NCBI GenBank assembly: GCA_011192195.1
Contig: DUEH01000003.1
Location: 3,734 to 67,733, forward strand
DNA length: 64,000 bases
Direction of reading: 5' to 3'
Source of the DNA: Chloroflexota bacterium
GTDB lineage: Bacteria > Chloroflexota > Anaerolineae > 4572-78
Part shown: piece after piece, positions 38,089 to 55,389 of the stretch
How positions within the stretch are numbered: the first letter of the stretch is position 1
How the letters are laid out: the number at the start of each line of letters is the position of its first letter
Notes under the pieces: generated by a model
What the model saw: only the letters and a program-made list of their open reading frames with translations
The model's database searches: none
What the model was told of the DNA's origin: nothing
Translations under genes and position numbers: made by a program

Positions 38089-39397
38089 GATTATGAAAAC
38101 CTTTGCCACATCTTTTTTTAGCCACTTTGGGGCGAAAGCGCTGCCCTCTGAAACAGATATTCTGGTCGTTTTACCGCCGGACCTGGAACAGGTTTTTGGC
38201 AAACCGCGTCTTTATCTGACCTTTGCCAATGAAGACCCGGCCCAGCCGCGCGAGCTATCGCCCAATGAAGACCTGTTGGTTTATGGCAGTCGTACCTTTG
38301 ACCGGATGCTTGCGTTGCTTGAGGGGCGCGGCGCGACAACGCATTTGCAGCTACCCATTCGCCAGCCCACCGAACTTGATTTGCGGCTCCCCTTTGCCAA
38401 CGCTAAAGCGACGCTGGTAGAAGACGATTACCAACAAAGCGTAGAACCTTTCTACGTGTTTCACTTCCGGGCAACGTACATCTGGGCGGAAAAGGAAGAG
38501 GTTTTCATCACCATCACGCTGGATGGCGCGGGCGCGCAACATCCCCACCGCAGCGAGTTGCTGGGCCGGGGCAAGGTATTTGGCGCGCCGGATGAAAGCG
38601 AAGCGCGAAAGATTGACGCGGCGCTTTTACGTCAGCAGTTTGAACGCGCTCAGAAAATTGCCCAGGCGCAGGTTGCTGAACGCGCCGATGCTCTGGAAGA
38701 GATCATCAAGACGCGCTTGCGGCAAATTCTGGCGCGTTTGAAGCGATTTTATGGGCGATTGATGGCAGAAATAACCAGCGACAACCCGGCCCGAAACGAG
38801 GCGGCGCGGGCTGATTTGGAAGCCGACTTACAACGCAAACAGGCCGATGAGTTGGAGCGGCATCGGTTGCGAATACAGCTTGCGCCGGTGGGCTACGCCG
38901 TGATGCTGGTTCCCTTTATCGAGCATCGTTTGAGCTTGAGCTGCGGCCAACAGACCAGCCGCCTGACCCTGCGCCGCGACTTGCACACCGGCTGGGTGGA
39001 AACTTTTTCCTGTCAGCCGGAAATTGAATCTATCACAGATCTGGCTTTTTCCTCATTCAAAGATCGTTTTCGGGCGCAGGGGCGTTTTGCCGAACTGTGC
39101 GCGGAAAATGCGCTGCTCTGCCGGGAAGACGCGCTGCACAGCGTTTTGGCCGTCGCCGGAACGAAGGTAGAAGCGCCCGACGCGCCGGAGCAGGTTTGCC
39201 GAGACGCGCAGCGTTACATCTGGCGGCGAGTTGAGGCTGCTCGATGGGTTATTTATCTGGGACAGCGCAGAGGAAGCAAGGCTTTGTCGCCTGTCTTGGG
39301 GCGTTTGCTGGTGATGCTGGATCAGGAGGGGAACGTGATCAAACGGCGGAAAGTGGGGGCGGTGAGCCGGTTGTTGGGGAGAGTTTTCAAGAGATAA
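38087..39397 (+). CDS. Hypothetical protein, YqhG-like partner of the SNF2 helicase (tentative)
   Basis: 436-aa ORF 83 nt downstream of the helicase. N-terminal 'FFSHFGAKALPSETDILVVLPPDLEQVFGKPRLYLTF' and a central coiled-coil recall the Bacillus YqhG family. This is from memory and not verified. Confidence 0.55.
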   Translation: MIMKTFATSFFSHFGAKALPSETDILVVLPPDLEQVFGKPRLYLTFANEDPAQPRELSPNEDLLVYGSRTFDRMLALLEGRGATTHLQLPIRQPTELDLRLPFANAKATLVEDDYQQSVEPFYVFHFRATYIWAEKEEVFITITLDGAGAQHPHRSELLGRGKVFGAPDESEARKIDAALLRQQFERAQKIAQAQVAERADALEEIIKTRLRQILARLKRFYGRLMAEITSDNPARNEAARADLEADLQRKQADELERHRLRIQLAPVGYAVMLVPFIEHRLSLSCGQQTSRLTLRRDLHTGWVETFSCQPEIESITDLAFSSFKDRFRAQGRFAELCAENALLCREDALHSVLAVAGTKVEAPDAPEQVCRDAQRYIWRRVEAARWVIYLGQRRGSKALSPVLGRLLVMLDQEGNVIKRRKVGAVSRLLGRVFKR

Positions 39398-39404: not shown

Positions 39405-39653
39405 CTAGAAAGCCTGCGCTACACTATTGAGACGGGTGATTTCCTCATCGCTCAAAGAAATTTCAACGCTTTTGATTGTTTCCTGTAATTGTTCAACCGT
39501 TCTTGCGCCAATGATAGCCGATGTGATGACCGGGTTCGCCAGCATCCAGGCCAGGGAGATTTGGGCGGGCGCGGCCTGGTGTTCAAGGGCGATTTCTTCC
39601 AAAGTTTCTATCACCGTAAACCCGGCGTCGTTGCTGTATTTTGACATCCTGTC
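39405..39653 (-). pseudogene. Aldo/keto reductase C-terminal fragment
   Basis: '...FTVIETLEEIALEHQAAPAQISLAWMLANPVITSAIIGARTVEQLQETIKSVEISLSDEEITRLN' is the last ~80 aa of an AKR. The upstream ~240 aa are absent, and the fragment begins at the repeat element's TIR. Confidence 0.6.
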
Positions 39654-39779
39654 GTAACCGTTCACCCCCCTCCAACCTCCCCCGAAATCAAGGGGAGGCT
39701 TTTAAACTTCCCCCCGTCAACGGGGGGAGAGCCTGCCCCGCTTTACCGGGCATTGAGGGGGGTAGGGGTGAACGGTTAC
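39654..39779. repeat. C/G-rich double-hairpin element with terminal inverted repeats GTAACCGTTCAC, copy 2
   Basis: gtaaccgttcacccc...ggggaggcttttaaacttccccccgtcaacgggggg...ggggtgaacggttac. It carries a 24-nt insertion relative to copy 1. Confidence 0.9.
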
Positions 39780-40030
39780 TCTGCGTCGCTGACCATGCGA
39801 GCGCTGTGTTCAATGACGCGGGCCACGGCAGAACGGTCAAAGTGGCGCAGGTCTTCTTTGTGGGCCAGCGCGCCAATCAACCGGGCGTAGAGCAGGGCGC
39901 TGTCGCCGTTGCGCGGCATATCTTCAGCAAAATCAGCCGTCACCTTGAATAACTCTTGAAAATCGGGGTCTTGCCGGCTCAAGAGGTAGTACAGGTATCT
40001 GTCGCCAATCAGGATGATTTTTTCTTCCGG
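39776..40030 (-). pseudogene. Internal fragment of a Lon-related AAA+ protease-like gene
   Basis: The frame is open from directly after the rhaB stop: 'EEKIILIGDRYLYYLLSRQDPDFQELFKVTADFAEDMP...FDRSAVARVIEHSARMVSDAE'. It has no start codon. Its TAA stop is supplied by the element's TIR. Confidence 0.5.
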
Positions 40031-41527
40031 CTAAGAATTCTCCGTTAAGGCCAGAAAGCCTTGGTACGCTTCATCCCAGGCGGCGGTATCTTGCGGCAGG
40101 TATTCTTGTACCGGGAAAGAGCGCTTGATAATGGCGCGCCCCTCTGCCAGCGAAGAAATTTCACCCACGGCCAGCATTTGCAGCAAAATATTCCCCAGCG
40201 CCGTCGCTTCGATGGGGCCGGTTACAACGCGCTTGCCGGTGGCATTGGCAGCAAATTGATTGAGCAGCTTGTTCCGCGCGCCGCCGCCCACAATGTGGAT
40301 GACTTCAATGGCCGAACCGGTCATCCCCTCCAGCTTTTCCACGCTCCAGCGATATTTCAAGGCCAGACTTTCCAGCGCCGCGCGGACGATGCTTCCTGTG
40401 CTTGGGGGGATGGTCTGTTCTGTACGGGTGCAGTAGGCGCTGATTCTGGCGGGCATATTACCCGGTGCAAGAAAGTCGTTATCTTCCGGGTTGACCAAAC
40501 AAGCCAGGGGGGGCGCATCGGCGGCCAGTTGGGTCAGTTTGTCGTAGGAATAGGCGTGACCTTCTTTTTTCCAGATGCGTTTACATTCCTGAACCAGCCA
40601 CAATCCCATAATATTTTTCAATAAGCGAATGGTGTTTTGTACGCCGCCTTCATTGGTAAAATTATAAGCCAACGATTGCTCATTGATAATGGGCGCGGGT
40701 GTTTCTACCCCCATCAGCGACCACGTACCCGAGCTGAGGTAGGCAAAGCGCCCCGCATCCTCTGCCGATGCCGGCACGGCGGCAACCGCGCTGGCGGTAT
40801 CGTGCGCGCCGGGGGCAATGACCGGGACGCGCTCATTCAACCCCAACTCTTCAACAATGGCGGGCAGCACCGTCCCCAGTTTTGCGCCCGGGCGGATAAG
40901 TGATGGGAAGATATCGGTGGGCAGGCCCAACTTTTTCAGCAGCGGCGCAGCCCAGATATTGTTTTGCATATCAAACATCTGGCTGGTGCTGGCGATGGTG
41001 TATTCGTTGGCTTTTTGGCCGGTGAACCAGTAGTTGAAGAGGTCGGGCATAAAAAGGAGCGTATTGGCAATTTGCAGCGCGGGGTCGTTTTGCTGCGCCA
41101 TTGCAAATAGCTGAAAAAGGGTATTGAGCTGCATAAACTGGATGCCCGTTTGGGCGAATATCTCTTCACGGGAGACAAGTTCAAAGACTTTTTCAAGCAT
41201 CCCGTTAGTGCGGCTGTCTCGGTAATGGTAAGGGTTGCCGATGAGGTTTCCCGCGCTGTCCAGCAAGCCGAAATCTACGCCCCAGGTATCAATACCCAGG
41301 GCCGCAAGCTGAATGCCGCGACCTTTGACTGCTTTTGCCAGACCGTTTTTCATTTCCTGAAACAGACGCAGCGTGTCCCAGTGCAGGCTGCCGCTCACCC
41401 GTACCGGGCCGTTGGGGAAGCGGCTGATCTCTTCCAGCGATAATTTCTCGCCGTCAAAACGCCCCACCAGCGCCCGACCGCTTTCCGCGCCTAAGTCCAG
41501 AGCCAGGAAGTTTTTTGTTTTAGCCAT
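40031..41527 (-). CDS. rhaB: Rhamnulokinase
   Basis: Strong collinear resemblance to RhaB: 'LALDLGAESGR', 'IDTWGVDFGLLD', 'YRDSRTNG', 'GIQFMQLNTLFQL', 'YLSSGTWSLMG', 'IHIVGGGARNKLLNQ', 'GPIEATALGN'. Start chosen at 'MAKTKNF' with RBS agaggag. Confidence 0.9.
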   Translation of the reverse strand: MAKTKNFLALDLGAESGRALVGRFDGEKLSLEEISRFPNGPVRVSGSLHWDTLRLFQEMKNGLAKAVKGRGIQLAALGIDTWGVDFGLLDSAGNLIGNPYHYRDSRTNGMLEKVFELVSREEIFAQTGIQFMQLNTLFQLFAMAQQNDPALQIANTLLFMPDLFNYWFTGQKANEYTIASTSQMFDMQNNIWAAPLLKKLGLPTDIFPSLIRPGAKLGTVLPAIVEELGLNERVPVIAPGAHDTASAVAAVPASAEDAGRFAYLSSGTWSLMGVETPAPIINEQSLAYNFTNEGGVQNTIRLLKNIMGLWLVQECKRIWKKEGHAYSYDKLTQLAADAPPLACLVNPEDNDFLAPGNMPARISAYCTRTEQTIPPSTGSIVRAALESLALKYRWSVEKLEGMTGSAIEVIHIVGGGARNKLLNQFAANATGKRVVTGPIEATALGNILLQMLAVGEISSLAEGRAIIKRSFPVQEYLPQDTAAWDEAYQGFLALTENS

Positions 41528-41539
41528 AGCAGTCTCCTC

Positions 41540-41590
41540 TGAAAACAGGCGAATGTGCGAATGGCGAACAGCGAATAGAACCAATTTTCA
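41540..41590 (-). repeat. Clamped leader module: TGAAAAT - (GCGAATG)n array - GTTTTCA, directly 5' of the SD
   Basis: On the coding strand: tgaaaat (41590-41584), a heptamer run (41578-41549), gttttca (41546-41540), then agaggag and the ATG at 41527. Confidence 0.75.
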
Positions 41591-41781
41591 TCCGCTGTGG
41601 TGCGCCACAGGCTCATGATAACTCCTTCCGGAATGGGGATTAAACAACTGTCACATTTGGGAAATTGGAGATTGGGAGATTAGGAGATTATCAGCCTGCA
41701 ATCTCCGGCGAAATGAGACGCTCATTTAATTTTTGTTCCTTGGCTATCAGTTTTTAGCTGATGGCTGATAGCTGAACGCTT

Positions 41782-42399
41782 CTACCACTTGCTATAAGAA
41801 TCGCTGTGCCGGCGATACTCGATGAGCTTTTCGCCCAGAATTTCCGCTTCAAAAATAATGTCGCTCACTTCTTCTAATGCAGATGCCCATTGGTAGGCAT
41901 CTTCCAGCGTTTGACCGATGGCAAAGCTGCCATGTCCGCGTTGCATAACAATTTTATAGCCGCGCAGCGCTTCCGCAACAGTGTCAGCCATTTCTTGCGA
42001 ACCGGAAGCGTACTCTACCGAGACAACGGGGATTTTGCGCAGCAGATAAGAGCCTTCGTTATCAATAGGAATAATCTCGTCCCGTGAAAGGCTCAGGGTG
42101 ATGGCGGTGCGCGGATGGTTATGAATAATTGCCAGTGCGGCGGTTTGGCGGTAGATCTCCCGATGCACAATCAGTTCAGTGCTGGCAAGCGCTATGCCGC
42201 TGTCTTTGCCGTGCAGGCTGGTAATAACCAGATCAGAGGGTTTCAAACGTCCCAACTGCGCGCCGCGTCGCTTGATGATAATTTTATCGCCAATACGCGC
42301 GCTCATATTGCCGCCGTGTGAGCTGGTCAAGCCGGTAATGAAAATATCCCGCCCAATATCGCGGAATTGCTCGTAGAGGCGGGGGTCTATTTTTGACAT
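41782..42399 (-). CDS. Class II aldolase/adducin-domain protein (candidate rhamnulose-1-phosphate aldolase)
   Basis: 205 aa. 'SSHGGNMSAR' and 'HREIY...IIHNHP' are Zn-ligand His motifs of the FucA/RhaD/MtnB fold. It sits between rhaB and the AOR. Confidence 0.8.
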   Translation of the reverse strand: MSKIDPRLYEQFRDIGRDIFITGLTSSHGGNMSARIGDKIIIKRRGAQLGRLKPSDLVITSLHGKDSGIALASTELIVHREIYRQTAALAIIHNHPRTAITLSLSRDEIIPIDNEGSYLLRKIPVVSVEYASGSQEMADTVAEALRGYKIVMQRGHGSFAIGQTLEDAYQWASALEEVSDIIFEAEILGEKLIEYRRHSDSYSKW

Positions 42400-42420
42400 A
42401 ATGTTAATCTCCTGAGGGAA

Positions 42421-42493
42421 GGCAGTAGACGGTAGACAGTAGACAGGGAAAACTTTTCCCCGTCTACTTGTCTACTGTTCTACCGTCTACCGC
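42421..42493. repeat. Hairpin with (GTAGACR)n heptamer arms
   Basis: Arms are ggcagtagacggtagacagtagacagggaaaa and ttttccccgtctacttgtctactgttctaccgtctaccgc. It fills the AOR-stop to aldolase-RBS spacer. Confidence 0.9.
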
Positions 42494-42494
42494 T

Positions 42495-44279
42495 TTATAC
42501 CAAATCGTCCAGTTCAAGTTCTTGCAACTTCTCCGGGGTGGGAACGCCGTTTTTGTCCCAGCCGCGGAAGGAATAATATTCTTCCAGCATCGGGGCGAGA
42601 TTGACGGTGTATCCGGCGCTGGGGCCTTCGGCAACTTCTACGTCGAGCAATCGCTTTGGCAAGGTGTCATCGGCGGCGGTGAAGCCTTCGCGCAGGTTGT
42701 AGAGGCGCTCCAGGTTCCAGGTGCGTTCGCCTGCCTTCATCAGGTCGTCGGCGGTGAAGGCTTCGCCGGTGATGGCGGAAAGGATGCGGGCGAAGAAATC
42801 TTCGGCAACGGCCATATTGGTGAATTTGCAGATGACCAGGCTATCAATCATAGCGGCGGCGTCTTGATGCACCGATACGATGCCTGCCTTGCCCTGATAA
42901 GCCAGACGGTCAATCAATCGCGGCAGGGCTAATACTTCTGGCCCCAGCATATTGCCGCGCATGTGGCACGCGCCTCGGTTAGATGTGGCAAAAAGCAAGC
43001 CTTGTCCTTGCATACCGCGCGGGTCGTAGGCGGGAATTTCCAGCTTTTTCACGCTCATCGAAAGTTCCGGCACGCCGCGCGCTTCGGCAAAGCGGTAGCT
43101 GCCGTCGGAGAGACCCGCTGCGCCCAACCCTTGCCGGTAGGCGATGTTTTGAATGGTATCCAGCAGCAAGTCTGCGCGACCAAAGCGCAGGCCGCCTTCA
43201 ATGACGCCGCGTTCGGTCATTTCCATTGCGCAACCAATGGCATTCCCTACAGAGATGGTATCCAGCCCCAAATCGTTGCACAAACGATTGGCGTCGGCAA
43301 TGGTTTCCAGATTGTCTATGCCGCACTGCGCGCCAAAACTCCAGACGCTTTCGTATTCGGGACCTTCGCCTTCCCCTTTTTCTGTTTTGGTAATGCGCGT
43401 GCAGGCGATGGGACAAGCCCAGCAGGCTTGATTTTTGACCAGGATTTGCTCGGTGATGGCTTCGCCGCTGATCGCTTCTGCGCCTTCAAATTGCGATTGC
43501 TGGAAGTTGCGGGTGGGCAGCGCGCCAATGGCGTTGACCAGATTCATCACCACCGACGTGCCAAACTCCGGCAGCGCTTGCGAGGTGAGCGGGCTGGCTT
43601 TGAGCAGTTTGCCCGTTTCATATAGCATAAATTTGAATTGGTCTTTATCGGCGGGTTTGTTGCGTTCTTTGCCTTCTACCACAATGGCTTTCAGGTTTTT
43701 ACTGCCCATCACAGCGCCGGGTCCGCCGCGAGCCAACGCGCGTTCGCCATCGTTCATAATTGCCGCCATCAGCGAAAGGTTTTCACCGGCGGGTCCAATG
43801 CACAGCACGTTGCGTTTGTTGTTGTTTTGCCCCAGCGCCTGAGTGGTTTGGCTGACGCTTTTACCCCACAAGTTTTGCGCATTTTTCAGTTCTACGCCCT
43901 TGGGGGTAATTTCAATCATTACGGGATTTTTGGCTTTGCCGCGCACAATCATCACGTCGTAGCCGGTGCGTTTGAACTGCATCCCCCACCAGCCGCCGCT
44001 GTTGGCGTCCAGGATTGTGCCGGTGAGCGGGCTTTTGGTTGTTACCGAAAAGCGGTTGCTGGTTTGTATGCCGCTGGCGGTAAAAGGACCGGCGGTAAAT
44101 ATTAACGCATTTTCCATCGAAAGCGGGTCAACGCCGGGTCCAACTAAATCCCACAGCAACCGCGCGCCCAAACCGCGTCCACCCAAAAAGAGCCGCGCCA
44201 TTTTTTGGTCGAGAGGACGAGTCTCGATGGCGCCGGTCTCTAGGTTAATGTCAAGTATTTTTCCTGACCATCCATGCAT
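42495..44279 (-). CDS. Aldehyde:ferredoxin oxidoreductase (tungsto/molybdopterin AOR family)
   Basis: 594 aa. N-terminal 'GWSGKILDINLETGAIETRPL...FLGGRGLGARLLWD', a 4Fe-4S Cys region 'QACWACPIACTR', and the AOR C-terminal domains. Confidence 0.9.
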   Translation of the reverse strand: MHGWSGKILDINLETGAIETRPLDQKMARLFLGGRGLGARLLWDLVGPGVDPLSMENALIFTAGPFTASGIQTSNRFSVTTKSPLTGTILDANSGGWWGMQFKRTGYDVMIVRGKAKNPVMIEITPKGVELKNAQNLWGKSVSQTTQALGQNNNKRNVLCIGPAGENLSLMAAIMNDGERALARGGPGAVMGSKNLKAIVVEGKERNKPADKDQFKFMLYETGKLLKASPLTSQALPEFGTSVVMNLVNAIGALPTRNFQQSQFEGAEAISGEAITEQILVKNQACWACPIACTRITKTEKGEGEGPEYESVWSFGAQCGIDNLETIADANRLCNDLGLDTISVGNAIGCAMEMTERGVIEGGLRFGRADLLLDTIQNIAYRQGLGAAGLSDGSYRFAEARGVPELSMSVKKLEIPAYDPRGMQGQGLLFATSNRGACHMRGNMLGPEVLALPRLIDRLAYQGKAGIVSVHQDAAAMIDSLVICKFTNMAVAEDFFARILSAITGEAFTADDLMKAGERTWNLERLYNLREGFTAADDTLPKRLLDVEVAEGPSAGYTVNLAPMLEEYYSFRGWDKNGVPTPEKLQELELDDLV

Positions 44280-44294
44280 AGTGTTTGTCTCCTT

Positions 44295-44355
44295 TGAAAA
44301 TAAGCTGTCAGTTGTCAGCTATCAGCTTTCAGCGGTCAGCTTTACTGAATTTTCA
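44295..44355 (-). repeat. Clamped leader module: TGAAAAT - (AGCTRWC)n array - ATTTTCA, directly 5' of the SD
   Basis: On the coding strand: tgaaaat (44355-44349), a heptamer run (44345-44301), attttca (44301-44295), then aaggaga and the ATG at 44279. Confidence 0.8.
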
Positions 44356-44516
44356 TCCCCTGTGGTGAAACCGGTTTAATGAAAACTCCCTTGAAAACAG
44401 ACCGCCGACGGTGCAAACTGCCCTAATGCGGGCTATTTGAGACCGCCGACCGCCGAATTGCTCGTTCCCACGCTCCTGCGTGGAAACGCATACCATTTCA
44501 TTTGGATGCGTTTCAT

Positions 44517-45158
44517 TTACATTTGCATCAATGCCAGAGCGTCGTTGGCGGCGGCGGAGGCGTCCGGCGAGAATCGGTCTGCGCCGACGCTTTCGGCAAA
44601 GGCGCCGGTGACGGGCGCGCCGCCGATCATCACTTTTACCTGCTCGCGCAATCCCGCCTCTTTCAGCGCCTCGATGACCGTTTTCATCGAGGTCATCGTG
44701 GTAGTGAGCAGGGCGCTCATCCCCAGAATTTCCGGTTGGTGTTCGCGGATGGCTTCCACAAATTTGGCGTGAGGAACGTCAGTGCCCAGGTCAATCACTT
44801 CAAAGCCTTTGCCTTCCATCATCATCCCCACCAGGTTTTTGCCGATGTCGTGCAGGTCGCCTTGAACGGTTCCCAAGATGACTTTGCCGATGGGTTCCAC
44901 GCCGCCTTCCACTAATTTTGGGCGCAGAATGGTCAGTCCGGCTTTCATGGCTCTGGCGGCAATGAGCATTTCCGGCACAAAGATTTCCTGCGCTTCGTAC
45001 AGAGCGCCCACTTCGCCCATTGCTTCGATCATCCCCTGATTGAGAATGACCGAGGGATCGCCGCCCAAATCCAGCGCTTCCTGAACGCCTTCGCTGGCTC
45101 CCGGCGCGTCGCCATCAAGGATGCTTTCATAAATTTTGTCCAGTACGTCGTCTAGCAT
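44517..45158 (-). CDS. Corrinoid (B12-binding) protein, MtaC/MtbC-like
   Basis: 213 aa. N-terminal helical cap domain and a Rossmann B12-binding domain with 'GDLHDIGKN' (DxHxxG) and 'GMSALLTTT', '...VMIGGAP'. Confidence 0.9.
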   Translation of the reverse strand: MLDDVLDKIYESILDGDAPGASEGVQEALDLGGDPSVILNQGMIEAMGEVGALYEAQEIFVPEMLIAARAMKAGLTILRPKLVEGGVEPIGKVILGTVQGDLHDIGKNLVGMMMEGKGFEVIDLGTDVPHAKFVEAIREHQPEILGMSALLTTTMTSMKTVIEALKEAGLREQVKVMIGGAPVTGAFAESVGADRFSPDASAAANDALALMQM

Positions 45159-45204
45159 AGGTGTTTTCTCCGGTAATAAATTGCGTTTTGAGTTTCAGGT
45201 ATCT

Positions 45205-46443
45205 TTACTGAAATCCGCCGCTGGGGTCAGCCAAACCGCGTTCAGATTGAATTTTTTCTTCATAGCCGCTGGCTCGATAGCCGGCGATGGGGTGGCTGGG
45301 GACCCCCATTTCCCGGCGAATTTGCGCCAGCAAGGGGCGCACATCGCTGCGGTAGGCGTTGTTGAGAATGTCATGCGCGCCCAGTATGTCGCCGTTGCGC
45401 TGCGCTTCGGCCAGTTGTTTTCTGGGAACCAGCAGGGCTTTGGCGTAGGATTCCTGACAGTTTAGCACGGAGTAGATGATGGGCGCCATCTTGCCCTCGA
45501 TGTTGTGACACTGGTCAAGCATATAAGCAACGTTTTGAGCGGTGGCGCTGGTAATTTCGTCGTCGCTCAGTTCGGCTCCCACCAGTTCGTTGTAAATGAG
45601 GAACAGTTCGTAGGGGTTGACGCTGCCCACGATCAGATCGTCATCGGCGTATTTGCGGTTGTTGAAGTGGAAGCCGCCCAGTCGCCCCTCGTCCAGCAGA
45701 AAAGCCACAATTTGTTCTATGTTGACGCCCTGGGCGTGGTGTCCCAGGTCTACCAGAACCTGCGCTTGCGGGCCAAGTTTTAGCGCCCAGGCGTAGGCGG
45801 TTCCCCAATCGGGGATGTCGGTGCTGTAGAAGGCCGGCTCAAAGAATTTATACTCAATGAGCATACGGCTGTTTGCGGGCAGGTGTTGGTAGATGGTGCG
45901 CAATCCGGCCTCAAAGCGACGTTTGCGCCCGCGCAGGCTGTCTTGCCCGGCGTAGTTGGTGCCGTCGGCAAACCACAGGCTCAGGGTGTCGCTTTTGAAT
46001 TTGGTCATCAAATTGCAACATTCCAGAATGTGATCCAGCGCCCGTTCCTGAATAGCGGGGTCAGGGTTGCCCAGCGAGCCTAATTTGTACTCGTCGTCCT
46101 GAAAAACATTGGGATTGACCGCGCCAATACGAATGCCCTGCGCTTCGGCGTACTGGCACATAGCGTCGTAGTCGTCGTCCGCCGGGCGATCCCAGGGAAT
46201 GTGGACAGCGACGGTAGGGGTGATGCCGGTCATTTTGTGAACCATTGCCGCATCATCGAGCTTTTGTTGGGTGGTAGTAGCAGCGCCGGGCCAGGCAAAG
46301 GCCTTGAAGCGGGTGCCGCTGTTGGCGTAACCCCAACTGGGGGTTTCTATGTGTTGGTTTTTCAAGGCGGTTTTGACTTGCTCAATATCGATGCCAAGAT
46401 TGCTCAGGTCTTCTACCAGTAGGTCATAAGCTTTGTTTGACAT
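45205..46443 (-). CDS. rhaI: L-rhamnose isomerase (Pseudomonas stutzeri / xylose-isomerase-like TIM-barrel type)
   Basis: Collinear with that family: '[12 protein letters not shown]', 'HIPWD', '[11 protein letters not shown]', 'VLVDLGHHA', '[15 protein letters not shown]', 'YRASGYEEK'. Start at 'MSNKAYDLL' with RBS aaggaga. Confidence 0.9.
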
Positions 46444-46464
46444 TTTGCGTCTCCTTCTGAGGGC

Positions 46465-46513
46465 GGGTCTGTCTCTCGTTCCCACGCTCTGCGTGGGAAC
46501 AAGCGGCAGACCC
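46465..46513. repeat. Hairpin of the GTTCCCACGC...GCGTGGGAAC family
   Basis: Perfect inner stem gttcccacgc/gcgtgggaac (46478-46500) within outer gggtctg/cagaccc. Relatives lie at 8039-8058, 31340-31374 and 44464-44487. Confidence 0.9.
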
Positions 46514-46516
46514 CTG

Positions 46517-47617
46517 CTATTTATACACTCCGTGTTTTTTCACGGCGGCGATGAAGGCTTCAACGTTCTCCATAGAGACGTCAGACTGCACAATATGGGC
46601 CGGCGAACACATGTAGCCGCCGCCCGCGCCCAGAACGCGGATCTTTTCGGCCACGTTGGTCTCTATTTCTTCCGGCGTTCCTTGCGGCAACAAGTATTGC
46701 TGGTCAATAGCGCCCCAGAAAGAGAGTTTGTCGCCCAGACGAGATTTCAGGGCGTCCGGTTCGTGGCCGGGTACGTTGGGCTGAACCGGGTTGAAGACAT
46801 CAACGCCAATCTCAACCAGGTCTTCCAGAATAGGGGCCACCGCGCCGTCGGTGTGGTACATGATCATCACATTGGGGTTGACCGATTTTAGTTCCTGGAA
46901 TACTTCGGCATGGCGCGGCTTGAACAGGTTACGCCACATTTTGGGAGAAATCAACATGCCGTTTTGAGCGCCAAAATCATCGCCGGCCCATACGCCGTCA
47001 ACGCCCAGTTCAACCAGTTGTTTGCCAATTCCAATGCTGAATTCCTTGACCTTGTCCAGAAGCGCCTCGATGTAAGCTTCGCCTACGGCCATATCTATCA
47101 TAAATTTTTCCAGCCCCACCAGATGCCACGACATTTCAAAAATTGTCAACTCTAAATCGCCGATGATGAAGTAATTCTTTTTGTACATCTCGGCGTACTT
47201 TTTGGCGTCGTCAAAACGACCTTTCGCGTAGGGATCGGGGAAAGGGTGATTGCTTACATCTTGCACGGTGGTTGCGTTGCGCAAGGGGGCCTCTATGGTT
47301 TGCATATACAAGGGACCTTGCTCCATCAACATCCCAAATTCGTTGATGATTCGGCCTTCCTGGGGAACCGGATGGCTGTAGCCGCGCGGCAGGCTGCCGC
47401 CAACTACCACGCAATCGCTGCCCATTGCCACGCGCAATTCATTGGCTGAAATGCGATAGGTGACATCCTCAAAATATGAGGTGGTGTAGTGGATGGGAAT
47501 GTTATATTTTTTGCCAAAATCGTCGGTTAGTTTACGGCATAAATCAAACTGAAGCGGCACCCGATCAGGGGTTCCGCTGCGGCGCAGGGCGGTGAGTACA
47601 CGTTCTTTTGAGTTCAT
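46517..47617 (-). CDS. Uroporphyrinogen-decarboxylase (URO-D) family protein, MtaA/CmuA-like methyltransferase candidate
   Basis: 366 aa. '[17 protein letters not shown]' N-terminus and TIM-barrel URO-D-like layout. It has 'MYHTDG' at the position where MtaA-type enzymes carry the H-x-C zinc ligands. Confidence 0.8.
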
Positions 47618-47628
47618 TTCAAAACCTC

Positions 47629-47952
47629 CTAATCCAAATGAAAGACCTCTTCCAGTTCAATCATATTTTCATCGGCGTGAGCGCCGCCCAGGTCTTCAAA
47701 GTAGGGGGCCATAAAGTCTTGCCATTTGGCGTTGATGTCTTCTTTAGTCATCCCTTCCAGCGATGCCTGAAAACTTTCTTCGGCTTCAAAGTAGCCAAAG
47801 AGCAGGCCGTCTGCGCGCATAAAAAGGGAGTAGTTGCGCCAGCCGGTTCGCCGTAAAGCGTCCAGCATTTCCGGCCATACGGTTTCATGATGTTTTTTGT
47901 ATTCTTCTATTTTGTCTTTTTTGACTTTAAGAAGAAAACCGATGCGTTTCAT
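47629..47952 (-). CDS. rhaM: L-rhamnose mutarotase
   Basis: 107 aa. 'EEYKKHHETVWPEMLDALRRTGWRNYSLF...LLFGYFE' matches RhaM closely. Confidence 0.85.
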   Translation of the reverse strand: MKRIGFLLKVKKDKIEEYKKHHETVWPEMLDALRRTGWRNYSLFMRADGLLFGYFEAEESFQASLEGMTKEDINAKWQDFMAPYFEDLGGAHADENMIELEEVFHLD

Positions 47953-47957
47953 GTTCT

Positions 47958-48297
47958 TTATCCTTGCTGAATTTTGCAGGGCGTTTGGTGCAGCTTTTCC
48001 GCGCCTGTTCCGGTAATCAGGTAGCCGTCTTCAATTCGCAGGCCGCCCCACGGGGTGCTGAATAGAGGAATGTCAACCGATATGATCATATTCTCCGGGC
48101 ATCAGGACACAAACCGGCTCGAAATGAACCGGGAAATCGGCCAGCCACCGGGCGTGCGCCGGGCCAAATACTGCCCGATCATCGGCACAGGCTACCAGGA
48201 AATCAAGGTCATGGCGGGCCATCATTTTCTGTACTTTTTGCCACCGTTTACGATATTCCGCGACGGGTATTGTTGGTGTTGAGCCTTCAACTGCCAT
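47958..48297 (-). pseudogene. M24-family (Xaa-Pro peptidase/creatinase-like) gene remnant with an internal deletion
   Basis: An N-terminal 74 codons (creatinase-N-like '...RWQKVQKMMARHDLDFLVACADDR') end at a TGA. One frame over, '...GGLRIEDGYLITGTGAEKLHQTP...*' is a typical M24 C-terminus. The ~250-aa catalytic core is missing. Confidence 0.65.
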
Positions 48298-48327
48298 TTG
48301 AATTTTCGCGTCCTTTGGTTCGTTTTA

Positions 48328-48380
48328 CTGGTTCCCAAACTGATCCTTCGGTTTCGCTCAGGACAAGGTTTGGGAACCAG
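48328..48380. repeat. CCCAAAC...GTTTGGG interspersed element, copy 2
   Basis: ctggttcccaaactgatccttcggtttcgctcaggacaaggtttgggaaccag followed by T6, 12 nt from the binding-protein stop. Confidence 0.9.
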
Positions 48381-48391
48381 TTTTTTACAAA

Positions 48392-51300
48392 CTACTCGGC
48401 AGCCGCTTCAACGTTATCTGCATTGTAAACGGTGAAGGGACCCATCAGCACGCGCAGTCCTGCATCGCGGGTGGGGTCTTTCTCGATGGTGTAGGTTCCC
48501 ATCCGACCGGCCTCAAAGCTGACGCCTTCTGCGGCTTCCATCTGACCCGAAGCGATCAGGTAGGTGGTGTAGTAGGTCAGGTAGCCCAGGTCAACAAAGC
48601 TCCACAAGGCGAACTCGGGGGCGCAGCCGTTGAGGGTGTAGGATACCATCTCGGCGGGTAAACCAAGACCGCTAACCTTCACCTCGTCGCACAAGCCTTC
48701 GTCCTGCATAGCTTTGGCGGCGGAGGCAATGCCGACAGTTGTCGGGGCCATAATCAAGCCCAGGTCGGGGTATTTGTCAACCAGCGCCAGGGCCTGGTTG
48801 TAGCTGTCTTCGGACTGGTCGTTACCGTAAACAATGTCGACCAGTTCCAGCGCGTCATATTTGGAATCTTTGAGCGCTTCTTCCATAGCGGCAATCCAGG
48901 CGTTCTGGTTGGAGGCGTCGGGGGAGGCGGACAACACCGCAAACTGGCCGCCGTCATCGCCCAAAATGCTCAGGGCCATATCGGCCATAACTACGCCGGT
49001 TTCATCAAAATCTACCTGAGCAATGAAAACCTGCTCACCCTCGGCGGAGGGAATGGGAGAGTCCCAGGTAACAACGGCAGCGCCGGAGTCGAGCGCGGCT
49101 TGCGCAGCCGGAGCAATCTGGTCGCCGGCGTTGTTGGAGATCATGATCCCGTCCTGCCCTTGAGTGGCGGCGGTAGTGACAATCTCGATCTGACCTGCCA
49201 CACTGTTTTCGGGGGTCGGGCCAAGAAATTCCAGGTTGCCGGGATTGTCCAGTTCAGCGTGAGCTTCTTGCGCGCCGTTATTGGCCTGGTCAAAGACCAG
49301 AATACCCAGGAACTTGGGTAGCAGCACCATATTCAGTTCGACGCCCGGTTCAGGAACAACCACATCACCGGTATCTGCCGTTGCGGACTCGACTTCTGCG
49401 CCACCGGCGGCGGCTTCAACATTGTCTGCTGTGTAAACAGTGAAGGGTCCCATCAGCACGCGCAGACCGGCATCGCGGGTGGGGTCTTTCTCGATGGTGT
49501 AAGCGCCCATTCGACCCGCTTCAAAGCTGACGCCTTCTGCGGCTTCCATCTGTCCGGTAGCAATCAGGTAGGTGGTGTAGTAGGTCAGGTAGCCCAGGTC
49601 AACAAAGCTCCACAGGGCGAACTCGGGGGCGCAGCCGTTGAGGGTGTAAGATACCATCTCGGCGGGCAGACCCAAACCGCTGGTTTTTACTTCGTCGCAC
49701 AAGCCTTCGTCTTGCATAGCTTTGGCGGCGGCGGCGATACCAACGGTGGTCGGGGCCATAATCAGGCCCAGGTCGGGATATTTGTCAACCAGCGCCAGGG
49801 CCTGGTTGTAGCTGTCTTCGGACTGGTCGTTGCCGTAGACAATATCGACCAATTCCAGCGCATCATACTTGGAATCTTTAAGCGCCTCTTCCATAGCGGC
49901 AATCCAGGCGTTCTGGTTAGCCGCATCCGGTGAAGCGGACAGCACGGCAAATTGGCCGCCGCCATCACCCAGAATGCTCAGGGCCATATCGGCCATTACC
50001 ACGCCAGTTTCGTCAAAGTCTACTTGCGCGATGAATACCTGCTCGCCCTCGGCAGAGGGAATGGGGGAGTCCCAGGTAACAACAGCCGCGCCGGCATCCA
50101 TTGCCGCTTGCGCTGCCGGAGCAATTTGGTCGCCGGCGTTGTTGGAAATCATAATCCCGTCCATTTCCTGAGTGGCGGCGGTGGTAACAATTTCAATCTG
50201 TCCGGCTACGCTGTTTTCGGGGGTCGGGCCAAGGAATTGCAGTTCGCCGGGGTTGCCCAGTTCGGCGTGGGCTTCTTGCGCGCCTTCGTTGGCTTGGTCA
50301 AAGACCAGAATACCAAGGAATTTGGGGAGCAGGACCAGGTTGGCTTCCATGCCGGTTTCCGGCGTTACGGTTTCGCCACTTGCCGCGCCGGAATCTGCCG
50401 GTTCTGCCGCGGCTACTTCCGCGCCGCCGGCGGCGGCTTCAACATTATCTGCTGTGTAAATGGTGAAGGGCCCCATCAGCACGCGCAGACCTGCGTCGCG
50501 GGTGGGGTCTTTCTCGATGGTGTAGCTTCCCATTCGACCTGCTTCAAAAGTGACGCCTTCTTCGGCCTCAATTGCGCCGGTAGCCAGTTGGTTGGCAACG
50601 TAGTAGCTGAGGTAGCCCAGGTCAACAAAGCTCCACAGAGCGAACTCTGGGGCGCAGCCGTTGAGGGTGTAAGACATCATTTCGGCGGGCAGGCCAAGAC
50701 CGCTGACTTTTACATCGTCGCACAAGCCTTCATCCTGCATTGCTTTGGAGGCGGCGGCAATGCCGACAGTTGTCGGAGCCATAATCAGACCCAGGTCGGG
50801 GTATTTGTCGACCAGCGCCAGGGCCTGGTTGTAGCTGTCTTCGGACTGGTCATTACCGTAGACAATGTCGACCAATTCCAGCGCGTTATACTTGGAATCT
50901 TTGAGCGCTTCTTCCATAGCGGCAATCCAGGCGTTCTGGTTAGCTGCATCCGGCGAAGCAGAGAGAACGGCAAATTGACCGCCGTCATCTCCCAGGATGC
51001 TCAGAGCCATATCGGCCATAACCACGCCGGTTTCATCAAAATCTACCTGAGCCACAAAAACCTGCTCGCCTTCGGCGGAGGGAATGGGGGAATCCCAGGT
51101 GACAACGGTCATGCCGGCATCCATTGCCGCTTGGGCGGCGGGGACAATCTGGTCGCCGGCGTTGTTGGAAATCATAATAGCGTCAACGCCCTGGGTGGCG
51201 GCGGTGGTCACAATTTCAATCTGACCGGCTACGCTGTTTTCGGGGGTCGGCCCAAGAAATTCCAGGTTGTCGGGGTTGCCGATTTCGCCGGCAGCTTCCA

Positions 51301-51589
51301 ACGCGCCTTCGTAAGCCTGGTCAAAAACCAGAATGCCCAGGAATTTGGGCAGCAGTACCATTTGCAAATCGTCGCCAGAGGGCGCTTCTTCGGCTGCGGC
51401 TTCTTCCTCTTCAGCAGCCGGTTCTTCAGCAGCTTCTTCCTGCGCAGCCGGTTCTTCAGCAGCTTCTTCCTGCGCAACCGGTTCTTCGGCAGGTTCCGAG
51501 GGGTCCGGTGTTGCCTGTTCGCTGCCGCAACTTGCCAGCAGCAGGGCCAGAATGACGATCAAAACAAACAAGAATTTTCTGTGTTTCAC
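48392..51589 (-). CDS. Lipoprotein with three tandem complete RhaS-type (rhamnose ABC) substrate-binding modules
   Basis: Lipobox 'LLLASC', an acidic E/A/P linker, then three ~330-aa periplasmic-binding-protein units each starting '...[15 protein letters not shown]' and ending '...LMGPFT(I/V)Y.ADNVEAAA'. In-frame DNA periodicity is 1008 and 1023 nt. Confidence 0.85.
51415..51493. repeat. 30-bp tandem repeat (2.6 copies) encoding the acidic linker
   Basis: cagccggttcttcagcagcttcttcctgcg occurs at 51415-51444 and 51445-51474, then a partial copy. It encodes '[10 protein letters not shown]' repeats on the minus strand. Confidence 0.9.
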
Positions 51590-51646
51590 GTTACTCCTCC
51601 TATTAAAACAATTTTAGATTTTGGATGTTAGATTTCCATCTATTTA

Positions 51647-51707
51647 TTCCCAAACTGATCCTTCGGCTTGCGCTCTTTGAGCGCCGCTCAGGACAAGGTT
51701 TGGGAAC
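51647..51707. repeat. CCCAAAC...GTTTGGG interspersed element, copy 3 (with an internal mini-hairpin insertion)
   Basis: ttcccaaactgatccttcggcttGCGCTCTTTGAGCGCcgctcaggacaaggtttgggaa, in the same orientation as copy 2. Confidence 0.9.
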
Positions 51708-51753
51708 GAGGGCACTTCATCTGCATTGATTCTCAATAGGCTGCTCCTTTTTT

Positions 51754-51816
51754 AATTATCAATTATCAATTGTTAATTGTTAATTGTCAATTGTTAACTG
51801 ATAATTGTTCATTGTT
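51754..51816. repeat. Tandem heptamer array (AATTRTY)n, 9 units
   Basis: aattatc x2, aattgtt x2, aattgtc, aattgtt, aactgat, aattgtt, cattgtt. It encodes the last ~9 codons ('NNEQLSVNN') and the stop of the permease gene. Confidence 0.9.
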
Positions 51817-52821
51817 CTTGCTGCTTGCTTCGGCTAACCGGCGGCGATCGAGATAGGCGCGTACAGTTTGGGTCATATTTGGCACCAGCACCGACAGGAT
51901 AAGCAACATGCCGATAACCCCGGTTTGCACGTGGCCGGTAATATTTGCCAGCGACATACCGTTACGCAAGTTCAACACAATCATAATTGATAACAACACC
52001 CCGTAGATAGAGCCGGAACCGCCAAAGATACTGACGCCGCCCAGCAATACCATGGTGATGATGTCCAGTTCAAAGCCCAGGGCCAAATCGCCGCGAACAG
52101 CGCCCAGCCGGGCGGCAAACAGTAAACCGGCCAACGCAGCCACAGTACCGGAGGCTATGAACAAAATTGTTTTTACCCGATTTACTTTTACGCCGGAGTA
52201 TTCGGCCACTTCCCGGCTGTTGCCAATGACATACACGTACCGGCCAAAACCGGAGTATTCCAACAGCAAAATGGCCGCAATTACAAACAAAAAGAAAAGA
52301 AGCAAAGCCAGGGGAAACGGACCGACAAGCGGCTGCTGGCCCAAGGTGTCGAACCAGACGGGGAAATCGCCAATAGACTTGTCTTCCAGCAACACGCGGG
52401 CAAAACCTCTGAAGCCAATTAACATAGCCAGCGTTACCACCAGCGAGGGCAGGCCAACTTTGGCAATCCAAAAGGCGTTAAACGCGCCGCCAAGCACGCC
52501 AATTAGAAGCCCGGCCAACAAAGCGACCGGGATGGGCGCGCCCTGGCTGTAAAGCCAGGCCAGCGTACAAGCCGATAATCCCATCATCGAGGACACAGAC
52601 AAATCTATTTCTGCGTTGATAATGATAAAAGCCATAATCAGGGCTACAATTATTTTCTCGATGGATAGAATGAACAGGTTCATTTGATTACCAATGCTAA
52701 GGTAGTTGGGCGCAAGGGATGTGTTGCCGATGATAATCAGTATCAACACGAGCAGAAGGAACCCTTCCCAACTTTTTAGCTTATCCCATACTACTGACAG
52801 GAAGTTTTTATCATGCGACAT
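51787..52821 (-). CDS. Rhamnose-type ABC transporter permease (RhaQ-like)
   Basis: Multi-TM ORF of the ribose/rhamnose permease family. Start at 'MSHDKNF' with RBS aggagg, overlapping the upstream stop by 11 nt. Confidence 0.85.
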
Positions 52822-53878
52822 GTCCAGGTTCCTCCTGAGTTTGAGTTTCTTCGACATCTTGTTGGGTCATTTGTAGCTCACTCCGCGCCCACAAGTCTCG
52901 CAGGCGGTTCATAATTACAAAGTCAGCGGCTACGGCCAGCAAAATCATTAAGCCCAGCAGGGCCTCTCGCCAGAATTGGCTGATTTCCGCCCACCTAATC
53001 AGGCTGTTATCAATAACGTCAATCAATATGGCTCCCAGAAGCGTACCAATAATTGTACCGGCACCGCCGTTGATATTGGCTCCGCCCACAACCGCCGCCG
53101 CCACCGATTTTAGCTCTATCCCCAGGCCGGCCACCACGGTAATATTGCCAAATCGAGCCAGAAACATAAAACCGGCCAATCCGCTCAAAGCGCCACACAA
53201 CACAAAGGCAAAAAAGACAATCCGCTGCGAGGGAAAACCGGCCACTTTAGCGGCATCGGGGTTTGAACCAATGGCATACAGGCGGCGGCCATAGGGCAGA
53301 TAGCTAAGCATTAGTTGAAAAATAATAACCACCGCTACCATAATTCCTACCAGCAACCTGAAATCGAGTTTGTCTATGCTAAAGATATTGGCCCGAGGTA
53401 AGTCTATAATCCAGGCCGGCAGGCTGGACGTAATTACAGTTTGGGCGTCGGAGTACTCTACCAACATGGTGCGGAACAGAGCCAGCGTACCTAGCGTAAC
53501 AATAATGGCCGGCACCCGCCCATAAGCCACCAATACGCCGTTAAACGCGCCCATTGCCGCCCCAACGCCGATAGCCATTAGAACGACCGCAAGAGGAGCT
53601 ATCTCATTGTTATCGGCCAGTTGCTGGCCCACAAAATAGGCGGTAAAGCCTACAATAGAGCCAACAGACAGATCGATGTTTCGCGTTAACACCACCAAAG
53701 TTTGTCCAACGGCAACTACTGCGATAATAGCCACACTGGTTGAAATCCGATTAAAAAAACGGGGGCTGAGATAGTTTTCTATTTGAGTGGCAAAAAAGAT
53801 AATGACCATAATGATGAGTACAACAAGGACAAGTTCTCTAATTTGCTCCGGTCTAAAGCGGCGCATCAACGCGTTCAT
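52811..53878 (-). CDS. Rhamnose-type ABC transporter permease (RhaP-like)
   Basis: 355-aa multi-TM ORF. The start overlaps the ATPase stop by 4 nt. Confidence 0.85.
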
Positions 53879-55389
53879 TGGCTAATCTCCTCGGTTAGGT
53901 GGCTTTGCCCCATTGCGGCAGTCATAACAATTTCCTGGGTGGCCTCTTCGCGGTTAAATATGCCCATTTGTTTGCCCTCGCGCATAACCAAAATACGGTC
54001 GCTCATAGCCAGCGCCTCCGGCAAGTCTGATGAGATGAGGATTATGGCCAGCCCCTGCTCGGCCAACTCATTGATAATGTGGTGAACTTCGGCTTTGGCC
54101 CCCACATCGATGCCGCGGGTTGGTTCATCAAAAATAAACAGTTTGGGTTCGGCGTTGAGCCATTTGCCGAGCATAACCTTTTGCTGATTACCGCCGGACA
54201 GTTTACCCACCTCGTGATTTACAGATGGGGTGCGGATGGTGAGCCGTTTACGGTAATCCTCGGCGGTGGCTTTTTCTCTGCTGTGTTTTACCAACCCCAG
54301 ACCGCTTAAATATCTTTTGAGCGTTGGCAGCGAAATGTTAGAGGTGATTGACATAGGCATAGTCAGCCCAAACTGCCGCCGGTCTTCTGTTAGGTAAGAA
54401 ATTCCGCATTTAAGCGCCTGTTCCGGCGATTTCATCGTTAGCGGCTCGCCTTCAAAGATGATTTCGCCGGCGTCTGCCGGCTCGATGCCAAACAGGGCCA
54501 GCCCCACATCGGTGCGCCGCGAGCCAACCAGCCCGGCAAAGCCCAGTACCTCGCCGCGCCGCACGTCAAAATTAATATCCGAGAAAACGCCTTCTTTACC
54601 CAACCCCCGCGCCGATACCAGCACCTCGCCTTTTTCCGCCTGGCTTTTGGCAAAATAATCGCCAACTTCACGGCCCACCATATCGCGAATAAGGCTGTCG
54701 TGGGTAACATCGCCGGTAATGTTGGTAGAAATGTGCCGGCCGTCGCGGAACACGGAGATACGGTCGGAAATTTTGAAGACCTCTTCCAGGCGGTGGCTAA
54801 TAAACAGTACGGCGACGCCTTGTTCTCGCAGGGTATTAGCCACTTTGAACAACTGCGCCACCTCGTGCGCGGAAAGCGAGGCGGTTGGCTCGTCCATAAT
54901 CAACACCCGCACATCCAGCGAGATAGCTTTGGCAATTTCAACGGCTTGTTGGGCGGCCAGGGTAAGACCGCGGGCGGGCATTTTTACATCGAGCTTAACA
55001 TCCAGCTTTTCCAGAATCGACTCGGCGTCTTTGTACATCTTTTTCCAACTTACTACCGCGCCCCGGTCCCGGTGGCTGATAAAGATATTTTCGGCCACAT
55101 TTAAATCCGGGAAAACGAGCGGTTCCTGATAAATGGCAGCCACACCGTGCGACTGCGCTTGCTGCGAGTTGTGGATGTGGACGGGTTGCCCATCCAGTAA
55201 AATATTGCCGGTATCGGGCCGGTAGATGCCGGTCATTGTCTTTATCAAGGTCGACTTGCCGGCTCCGTTTTCACCTACCAAGGCATGTATCTCGCCGGGG
55301 TAGAGGGTTAAAGAGACATTATCAAGAGCCTGAGTCATATCGAAGCGTTTGGAAATGTTTTTCATTTCCAAAACAGGTTTTTTATCCAT
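53875..55389 (-). CDS. Rhamnose-type ABC transporter ATP-binding protein, duplicated ATPase (RhaT-like)
   Basis: Walker A 'GENGAGKST', signature 'LSGGNQQKV', two ABC domains, RBS caggaga. Confidence 0.9.

Follow-up and report, generated by a model that had tools for sequence, protein, structure and literature searches.

What would a gene of the uroporphyrinogen decarboxylase (URO-D) superfamily and a gene for a cobalamin-carrying corrinoid protein (CP) be doing in the midst of a bacterial L-rhamnose operon? The question is posed by a 64,000-nucleotide stretch of DNA from a Chloroflexota bacterium of the Anaerolineae (contig DUEH01000003.1 of assembly GCA_011192195.1, positions 3,734 to 67,733). 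This stretch is referred to here as the window, and coordinates are positions within it unless a locus name precedes them. The two genes lie on its minus strand at 46517-47617 and 44517-45158 and encode proteins of 366 and 213 amino acids. The comparative evidence makes a strong case that the URO-D protein is an accessory enzyme tied to rhamnose and a member of the corrinoid methyltransferase superfamily. Beyond this, we think it probable, if by no means assured, that the URO-D protein and the CP form the substrate-activating half, namely the first methyltransferase (MT1) and the carrier, of a corrinoid O-demethylase for a methylated L-rhamnose (such as the 2-O-, 3-O- or 4-O-methyl form). Which sugar is the substrate, which of its oxygens carries the methyl group, which way that group travels and what accepts it are matters of inference here, as are the metal site and the part played by an accompanying aldehyde:ferredoxin oxidoreductase (AOR).

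A rhamnose operon with two additional genes

The two genes belong to an uninterrupted run of 21 minus-strand genes extending from position 63727 to 40031. Within this run the order is rhaM, the URO-D gene, rhaI, the CP gene, the AOR gene, a class II aldolase gene and rhaB, with spacers of 11 bp between rhaM and the URO-D gene, 73 bp between the latter and rhaI, and 46 bp between rhaI and the CP gene. A DeoR-family regulator gene and genes for a rhamnose ATP-binding cassette (ABC) transporter lie upstream of the rhaM to rhaB stretch. The original prediction, made from the sequence alone, had already given this order, with strand and coordinates, and had pointed to the motifs GDLHDIGKN in the CP and MYHTDG in the URO-D protein; all of the open reading frames (ORFs) are present as described, and both motifs are found in the translations.

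The rhamnose genes themselves are readily recognized, all on the minus strand. RhaM (47629-47952) is an L-rhamnose mutarotase (PF05336, E 3e-30), and the L-rhamnose isomerase (45205-46443) is of the RhaI type (TIGR02635, 574 bits against a cut-off of 531). The class II aldolase (41782-42399; PF00596, E 6e-35; NF006413, 208 bits against a cut-off of 203) is the proposed rhamnulose-1-phosphate aldolase. RhaB (40031-41584) is a rhamnulokinase-like FGGY kinase with FGGY_N and FGGY_C domains, scoring 500.6 bits with TIGR02627, just below the cut-off of 528; its true start is probably an ATG near 41530. The run thus holds the mutarotase, isomerase, kinase, aldolase, transporter and one regulator of a phosphorylated L-rhamnose operon. 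Since this route is complete without the URO-D and CP genes, the two can be assigned to an accessory step upstream of it. A scan of positions 39500-56800 for terminators and promoters gave counts that were not above those of shuffled sequences (29 vs 26.4; 14 vs 12.2) and is therefore uninformative on the operon boundaries.

Profile searches upheld the families proposed at the outset for both proteins. The CP has a B12-binding_2 helical cap (PF02607, residues 5-78) followed by a B12-binding Rossmann domain (PF02310, residues 91-192), with GDLHDIGKN as its DxHxxG motif. It is close to the NCBIfam models MtgC, pyl_corrinoid and MtbC, and its best match in the PDB is a corrinoid protein of Moorella (1y80, E 6e-59). 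Other matches are MttC (7xcn), the CP of a Desulfitobacterium O-demethylase (4jgi), MtmC (3ezx), the B12 module of MetH and MtaC (2i2x_B, E 1e-27), and all of these nearest relatives of known structure, the Moorella protein included, serve as carriers in methyl transfer.

The URO-D protein matches PF01208 (E 4e-27), of which it covers profile positions 101-346 only in the Pfam scan. An AlphaFold (AF2) model, built with 26 orthologs in the input, reached a pLDDT of 91 and a pTM of 0.91, and a Foldseek search with it gave MtaA as the nearest solved fold (4ay7/4ay8; TM 0.71-0.78, E 7e-16), with HemE structures next. The Pfam match, together with a model that fits the MtaA and HemE folds at a TM of about 0.7, places the protein in the superfamily to which a family of MT1s belongs. 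MtaA is also its best sequence match in the PDB, at about 20% identity. The best NCBIfam model is the MtaA/CmuA model TIGR01463 (77.6 bits against a cut-off of 235.4), NF040654 gives 42.6 bits against 400, and every methyltransferase model of NCBIfam scores the protein under its cut-off. Identity with HemE was considered and rejected, as TIGR01464 gives 26.8 against 303, the first 100 profile positions are unmatched and HemE entries of the PDB match in the C-terminal part only.

Some residues of the presumed active site could be compared directly. MtaA has an H-x-C...C set, the later cysteine lying in PGC, which we take to be its zinc ligands. In hidden Markov model alignments these positions hold H255-x-D257...H341 in the URO-D protein, and across an alignment of 26 orthologs H255 and D257 do not vary and H341 hardly does. 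The replacement argues against a thiol-methylating second methyltransferase (MT2) and would be in keeping with an MT1. A zinc-thiolate enzyme of the MtaA/MtbA type was rejected on the same ground, with TIGR01463 and NF040654 both below their cut-offs. It had been remarked earlier that MYHTDG stands where MtaA-type enzymes have their H-x-C ligands, so that the chemistry might differ; the departure from MtaA stands, with the refinement that H255, D257 and H341 occupy the ligand positions in an arrangement that an MT1 could have. From the alignments, these three residues are a candidate metal or acid site.

A common scaffold runs through the URO-D paralog clades (DDxGxQ, H-x-D/C-G, NxxQ, D305, Y335, H341 and D346), to which the rhamnose-linked clade adds an invariant polar set of its own (D25, R28, Y48, D51, R55, E93, E156, W164, H165, N281 and Q306). 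As read from the alignment, these clade-specific residues would fit the sugar pocket of a substrate-specific MT1 paralog, a match that is only suggestive. Substrate-specific MT1s of the UroD superfamily include MtvB, OdmB, VdmB, MtoB, CdmB, CmuA and MecE, some with zinc and others not, and many clades of the superfamily are without a known substrate (PMC13222342). Metal ligands are not discussed in the paper on MtoB (PMC8630106).

Linkage with rhamnose and other sugar genes across genomes

If the URO-D gene serves rhamnose metabolism, its orthologs should keep similar company elsewhere. Relatives of the URO-D protein turned up in 411 genomes when each species was represented by a single genome. 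The best 80 loci (64-83% identity) come nearly all from metagenome-assembled genomes (MAGs) of Chloroflexota, including Anaerolineae, Caldilineae and Ardenticatenaceae. Neighbourhoods were tallied by tblastn with the window proteins and a few added queries in 82 species-level loci (individual loci are cited by L numbers below), of which a subset of 50 long loci has at least 5 kb on either side. When the 153 URO-D-like ORFs of the fetched loci were clustered, the window gene and its orthologs formed one tight group, from which more than 20 other paralog groups stood apart at identities below 50%.

At least one rhamnose gene lies near the URO-D ortholog in 57 of the 82 loci and in 37 of the 50 long loci. 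The most frequent is rhaM, present in 49/82 (32/50 long loci) and directly adjacent on the same strand in 37/82, 27 times upstream and 10 times downstream (24/50 long loci). An isomerase gene directly follows the ortholog in 17/82 loci and, as the RhaA type, in 11/50 long loci. A rhamnose-type substrate-binding protein is found in 30/82 (25/50 long loci), and orthologs of the window's transporter, at 57-82% identity, adjoin the URO-D gene in roughly half of the long loci. The interleaving with rhamnose genes first noticed in the window therefore recurs in many species-level genomes. The isomerase is of the RhaI type in the window and of the RhaA type in most loci (PF06134, E 6.5e-210), and under either type the URO-D gene stays between mutarotase and isomerase. 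A linkage that outlasts the replacement of one isomerase by a non-orthologous one argues for a functional tie to rhamnose and not for inherited synteny alone.

A different neighbour was seen in two loci without rhamnose genes, where a pyridoxal-phosphate enzyme of the PALP family comes after a URO-D ortholog of 77% identity (L001:11199-12234 and L013:11134-12168); in L001 the enzyme was called as two genes. The URO-D clade may have a second conserved context here.

The position of the CP is less constant. The original prediction had expected the pair to be conserved with rhamnose genes; this holds for the URO-D gene, and the CP lies near it in only 10/82 loci. The tight conservation with rhamnose genes is that of the URO-D gene rather than of the pair. 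Where the CP does occur in rhamnose loci, it takes at least seven arrangements: after rhaI in the window, between rhaM and the URO-D gene (L003), before rhaM (L029), after rhaA (L023), after rhaB (L010), in the gap between regulator and transporter (L040) or directly after the URO-D gene (L060, L066). A linkage of CP and rhamnose genes that survives such rearrangement suggests function.

Homologues of the CP, 62-70% identical to that of the window, were also followed into eight further contexts represented by ten loci (L083-L092). All eight are sugar operons with URO-D paralogs or an MT2 beside the CP, and URO-D paralogs are present in seven of them. The neighbours are fucose isomerase, AOR and an HpcH aldolase in L083; PfkB, lyxose isomerase and mannitol dehydrogenase in L084; LacI, a ROK/BcrAD_BadFG-type protein and GPI in L085; PfkB, FGGY, KDPG aldolase and GFO_IDH in L086; and a sugar permease and an FGGY kinase in L088. 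In L091/L092 a sugar ABC transporter is followed by URO-D, CP, URO-D and URO-D genes, with transketolase, an AraD-like aldolase and a (pentose) kinase. An unusual combination is seen in L087 (8001-14532), where a RuBisCO-like protein (RuBisCO_large), DeoC and two UPF0261 proteins accompany two URO-D paralogs. The eighth context, L089/L090, has a sugar ABC transporter, CP, galactokinase and a Pterin_bind protein, with an activase of the RACo type upstream. These are JGI metagenome contigs (L089:1-10917 and L090) on which a sugar-sensing hybrid kinase stands between RACo and the transporter and the Pterin_bind protein, an MT2, comes after galactokinase; no URO-D-type MT1 lies within 8 kb there, so that the MT1 is either encoded elsewhere or of another family. 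The window arrangement is, on this strong showing, one case of a wider pattern in the phylum in which corrinoid systems accompany sugar operons, and the CP/URO-D pairs of the other operons fit a general theme of sugar demethylation.

The proposed reaction and its alternatives

Under the proposal, the methyl sugar would enter through the RhaS-type ABC transporter of the operon and be held in the polar pocket of the URO-D-fold MT1, where its ether oxygen would be polarised, probably by a metal or acid site of His255, Asp257 and His341. The Co(I) of the CP would attack the methyl group to give CH3-Co(III)-protein and free L-rhamnose, which would pass through RhaM, RhaI, RhaB and the class II aldolase to dihydroxyacetone phosphate and L-lactaldehyde. 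The AOR would oxidise the L-lactaldehyde and yield reduced ferredoxin. A pterin-binding MT2 encoded elsewhere would hand the methyl group to tetrahydrofolate, and a RACo-type activase, likewise encoded elsewhere, would re-reduce Co(II). A methyl ether on O2, O3 or O4 of rhamnose would be expected, from known enzyme mechanisms, to block isomerisation or aldol cleavage.

Parts of this scheme have parallels in established systems. In MtaB/MtaC of Methanosarcina, a zinc Lewis acid activates the oxygen of methanol, and Co(I) then attacks the methyl group of an aliphatic C-O bond. This is a functional analogue of the proposed chemistry, and MtaC is homologous to the window CP, whereas MtaB belongs to another TIM-barrel family than URO-D and acts on methanol, not on a sugar ether. 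The canonical L-rhamnose regulons, including those of Chloroflexi, share RhaM, RhaA or RhaI, RhaB, the class II aldolase, a RhaS-type transporter and a DeoR-type regulator with the window (Rodionova et al. 2013, PMC3870299); URO-D, methyltransferase and cobalamin components go unmentioned in that survey. They differ in having a RhaW/AldA-type lactaldehyde dehydrogenase where the window has the AOR (42495-44279, minus strand; AFOR_N and AFOR_C). The pair of AOR and aldolase, at 76-80% identity, occurs in L005, L010 and L029 as well. This suggests that the AOR provides a ferredoxin-linked oxidation of L-lactaldehyde in place of RhaW/AldA, and it might also be a source of low-potential electrons for corrinoid activation. 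A more distant AOR (L083:4700-6589) lies beside URO-D and CP genes in the fucose-isomerase locus.

The purpose of the system would be that of the P450 demethylase for 6-O-methyl-D-galactose of marine Bacteroidetes (Zobellia, Formosa), which is encoded among sugar-utilisation genes and removes a catabolism-blocking methyl ether from a sugar of algal glycans (PMC6292453). The P450 system is O2-dependent, haem-based and oxidative, releases formaldehyde and has no homology to the URO-D protein or the CP; in contrast, the system proposed here would be independent of O2 and would conserve the methyl group as methyl-tetrahydrofolate. That sugar O-demethylation had been described only for an aerobic P450 was part of the original prediction, and this P450 was indeed the sole sugar demethylase in the literature searched (PMC6292453). 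Sugar O-demethylation by a corrinoid system did not turn up in the full-text searches, which left out most subscription journals, so that its absence does not amount to proof. The mlp gene clusters, home of MtaA-like bacterial proteins, were rejected as a parallel since they serve methyl-sulfur and methyl-selenide metabolism in another context (PMC10418091).

Several points weigh against the demethylation of O-methyl-rhamnose. The substrate was deduced from gene neighbours alone, and 13 of the 50 long loci have no rhamnose gene within 10 kb; the loci come from related MAGs, so that the counts are not phylogenetically independent. The proposed His/Asp/His site derives from a sequence alignment and not from coordinates, and H341 also aligns with a conserved histidine of HemE and is thus not necessarily a metal ligand. 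Alkyl methyl ethers give up their methyl group much less readily than aryl ones, so that a Lewis-acid activation like that of methanol would be needed. Finally, the window was said at the outset to contain no methyl-acceptor enzyme or activase, and a tblastn search of the 64 kb with queries from a related locus indeed found neither a Pterin_bind MT2 nor RACo; only 14/82 loci, or 11/50 long loci, have a corrinoid partner, be it CP, Pterin_bind MT2 or RACo, at a distance of up to 10 kb from the ortholog.

Both missing components do occur beside orthologs elsewhere, MT2 together with RACo in L002, L019 and L022, and RACo alone in L004 and L016. In L002, rhaM, the URO-D gene and RhaA are accompanied by five more URO-D paralogs, two CPs, a Pterin_bind MT2, RACo and a GH78-type (Bac_rhamnosid6H) rhamnosidase, and L019, L022, L029 and L066 resemble it. 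A module recurs with the ortholog in these five loci, consisting of a weak URO-D paralog of 428 amino acids, DUF4037, a URO-D paralog of 326 amino acids, the GH78-type rhamnosidase and Lactamase_B_2. One of the six URO-D paralogs of L002 (14265-15281, plus strand) has the full MtaA-type zinc motif, LHICG with the later cysteine, next to neighbours with H-x-D; judged by this motif, it could be a thiol-directed methyltransferase beside the pterin-binding MT2.

The same corrinoid machinery could act on another donor, some small methylated compound that reaches the cell along with rhamnose-containing glycans. It could be a methyl glycoside, a methylated deoxyhexose that is not rhamnose, or a methylated oligosaccharide handled ahead of the release of rhamnose. 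The evidence from family, fold and partners would be the same, and the rhamnosidase with three to five URO-D paralogs in L002, L019, L022, L029 and L066 suggests several related substrates, possibly oligosaccharides. However, the commonest and tightest neighbours are rhaM, the isomerase and the RhaS-type monosaccharide transporter, and the rhamnosidase is absent from most loci, the window included. We regard such a donor as unlikely.

It is decidedly unlikely that the URO-D paralog is not a corrinoid methyltransferase and carries out a different accessory reaction, with rhamnose or one of its derivatives as substrate, the window CP serving another enzyme. A CP within 10 kb in only 10/82 loci, against rhaM near 49/82, would agree with this, as would the lack of the MtaA zinc-thiolate motif and the scores of all NCBIfam methyltransferase models below their cut-offs. 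On the other hand, we know of no activity besides methyltransferase and decarboxylase for the URO-D fold, and the HemE signature is absent. The CP recurs in rhamnose loci at varied positions, MT2 and RACo stand beside orthologs, CP homologues are paired with URO-D paralogs in seven of the eight other sugar contexts, and the canonical rhamnose pathway has no empty step for such an enzyme to fill.

An aryl methyl ether O-demethylase for methoxylated aglycones, for example flavonoids from rhamnosides, with rhamnose catabolism merely co-regulated, would bring the protein closest to the characterised O-demethylases. The MT1s of the UroD superfamily with this activity all use methoxylated aromatics (PMC13222342; PMC8630106), and the GH78-type rhamnosidase of several ortholog loci could release such aglycones. 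The systems of Moorella thermoacetica (MtvABC), Acetobacterium dehalogenans (OdmABCD/Vdm) and Methermicoccus shengliensis (MtoABCD) show the same modularity of UroD MT1, cap/Rossmann CP, pterin MT2 and RACo (PMC13222342; PMC8630106). All four parts co-occur beside URO-D orthologs in L002, L019 and L022, while MT2 and activase are not in the window, and many MT1 paralogs sharing few CPs are typical there, as in the ortholog loci. The differences lie in the substrate, an aryl ether there and a proposed alkyl ether of a sugar here; in the size of the MT1, 366 amino acids here against about 47-48 kDa for MtoB (PMC8630106) and 429 amino acids for CdmB; and in the neighbours, which are aromatic transporters there and interleaved sugar catabolic genes with a monosaccharide ABC importer here.

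Sequence comparison with the aryl enzymes gave a faint likeness. CdmB, the sole solved member of the MtvB/MtoB/CdmB clade and hence the only one compared through the PDB, matches the URO-D protein over its last 74 residues only, with a marginal E of 0.008 as a single sequence and 0.72 as a profile, and MtaA is closer. The 428-residue URO-D paralog of the rhamnosidase loci, compared with the PDB for a likeness to CdmB or MtoB, had no match. No aromatic-compound transporter accompanies the window gene, whose neighbours are a monosaccharide importer, mutarotase and isomerase; the rhamnosidase is absent from most loci, the invariant residues of the clade are mainly charged or polar, and sister CP/URO-D pairs sit with galactokinase, fucose isomerase and pentose genes. 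An aryl substrate is thus very unlikely.

MtaA, a methylcobalamin:coenzyme M methyltransferase, shares the TIM-barrel URO-D fold, onto which a corrinoid protein docks, and differs in being an MT2 that acts on a thiol, in having only about 20% identity and in zinc ligands that are not kept here; to our knowledge, Chloroflexota would not be expected to metabolise coenzyme M. Although the closest structure and the best NCBIfam models are those of the MT2s MtaA and MtbA, the opposite half-reaction, with methyl transfer from the methyl-corrinoid to an acceptor or methylation of rhamnose, is highly improbable, as the thiol-activating HxC...C ligands are replaced, related loci already have a pterin-binding MT2, and in a DeoR-regulated catabolic operon methylated rhamnose would block its own catabolism.

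The surrounding cluster and the meaning of the system

The remaining genes of the run, all on the minus strand, begin at the rhamnose end with the transporter. The regulator (55415-56302; HTH_DeoR and DeoRC in Pfam) heads the transporter and catabolic genes and is followed by the ORFs of the ATPase (53875-55389) and two permeases (51787-52857 and 52811-53878) of the rhamnose-type ABC transporter. The substrate-binding protein (48392-51589) is 1065 amino acids long and has three tandem RhaS domains (TIGR02637, 798 bits in three stretches; Peripla_BP_4 three times). Domain 1 shares about 88% identity with each of domains 2 and 3, and an acidic linker rich in Ala, Glu and Pro precedes the domains. 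In 14/82 related loci RhaS is likewise present as two or three copies, spaced by about 1 kb.

Upstream of the regulator are an SDR gene (56299-57057) that overlaps it by 4 bp, a gene for a metallo-beta-lactamase-fold protein (57054-57839) and a second SDR gene (57922-58680). Further upstream lie genes of the 2-oxoacid dehydrogenase type, E2 (59228-60652), E1beta (61736-62716) and E1alpha (62729-63727), with a LacI gene (60710-61708) among them; no E3 was seen among the co-directional genes of 56299-63727. Similar E1, E2 and SDR genes return in six to seven other URO-D loci. Just downstream of rhaB, a minus-strand ORF of 86 amino acids (39405-39665) resembles, by eye, the C-terminus of an aldo/keto reductase and is probably a truncated remnant, the space upstream of it being too short for a full-length gene. 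The downstream limit of the rhamnose cluster is marked by plus-strand genes (35709-39397) for an SNF2/helicase-family protein of 764 amino acids and then a protein of 436 amino acids without a Pfam match.

O-methylated sugars are widespread. Glycans of bryophytes, ferns and charophytes are reported to contain 3-O-methyl-rhamnose. Other sources of methyl-rhamnoses are the polysaccharides of cyanobacteria and algae, as well as lipopolysaccharides and glycolipids of bacteria. The paper on the P450 demethylase notes that methyl sugars are hard to degrade in the gut and build up in sea water (PMC6292453). Extending the idea beyond rhamnose, it is possible, and put forward here tentatively, that Chloroflexota hold a large, unrecognised family of corrinoid O-demethylases for methylated sugars, whose ethers are aliphatic, with one URO-D clade for each sugar (rhamnose, fucose, galactose, pentoses, hexoses) placed in the uptake and catabolic operon of that sugar, an H-x-D...H site instead of the zinc-thiolate one of MtaA, and the methyl groups passing to the folate one-carbon pool.

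The prediction is directly testable, as candidate substrates are obtainable and the assay is standard. If true, it would provide an oxygen-independent route for methyl sugars that have been regarded as recalcitrant and would explain their use by anaerobes and by the facultative Chloroflexota of sludge, sediments and mats. Carbohydrate ethers would join aryl ethers, amines, thiols, methanol and halomethanes in the range of Co(I) methyl-transfer chemistry, and the folate one-carbon pool of non-acetogens would have an extra source of methyl groups. It would also give a function to part of the UroD-superfamily clades for which no substrate is known.

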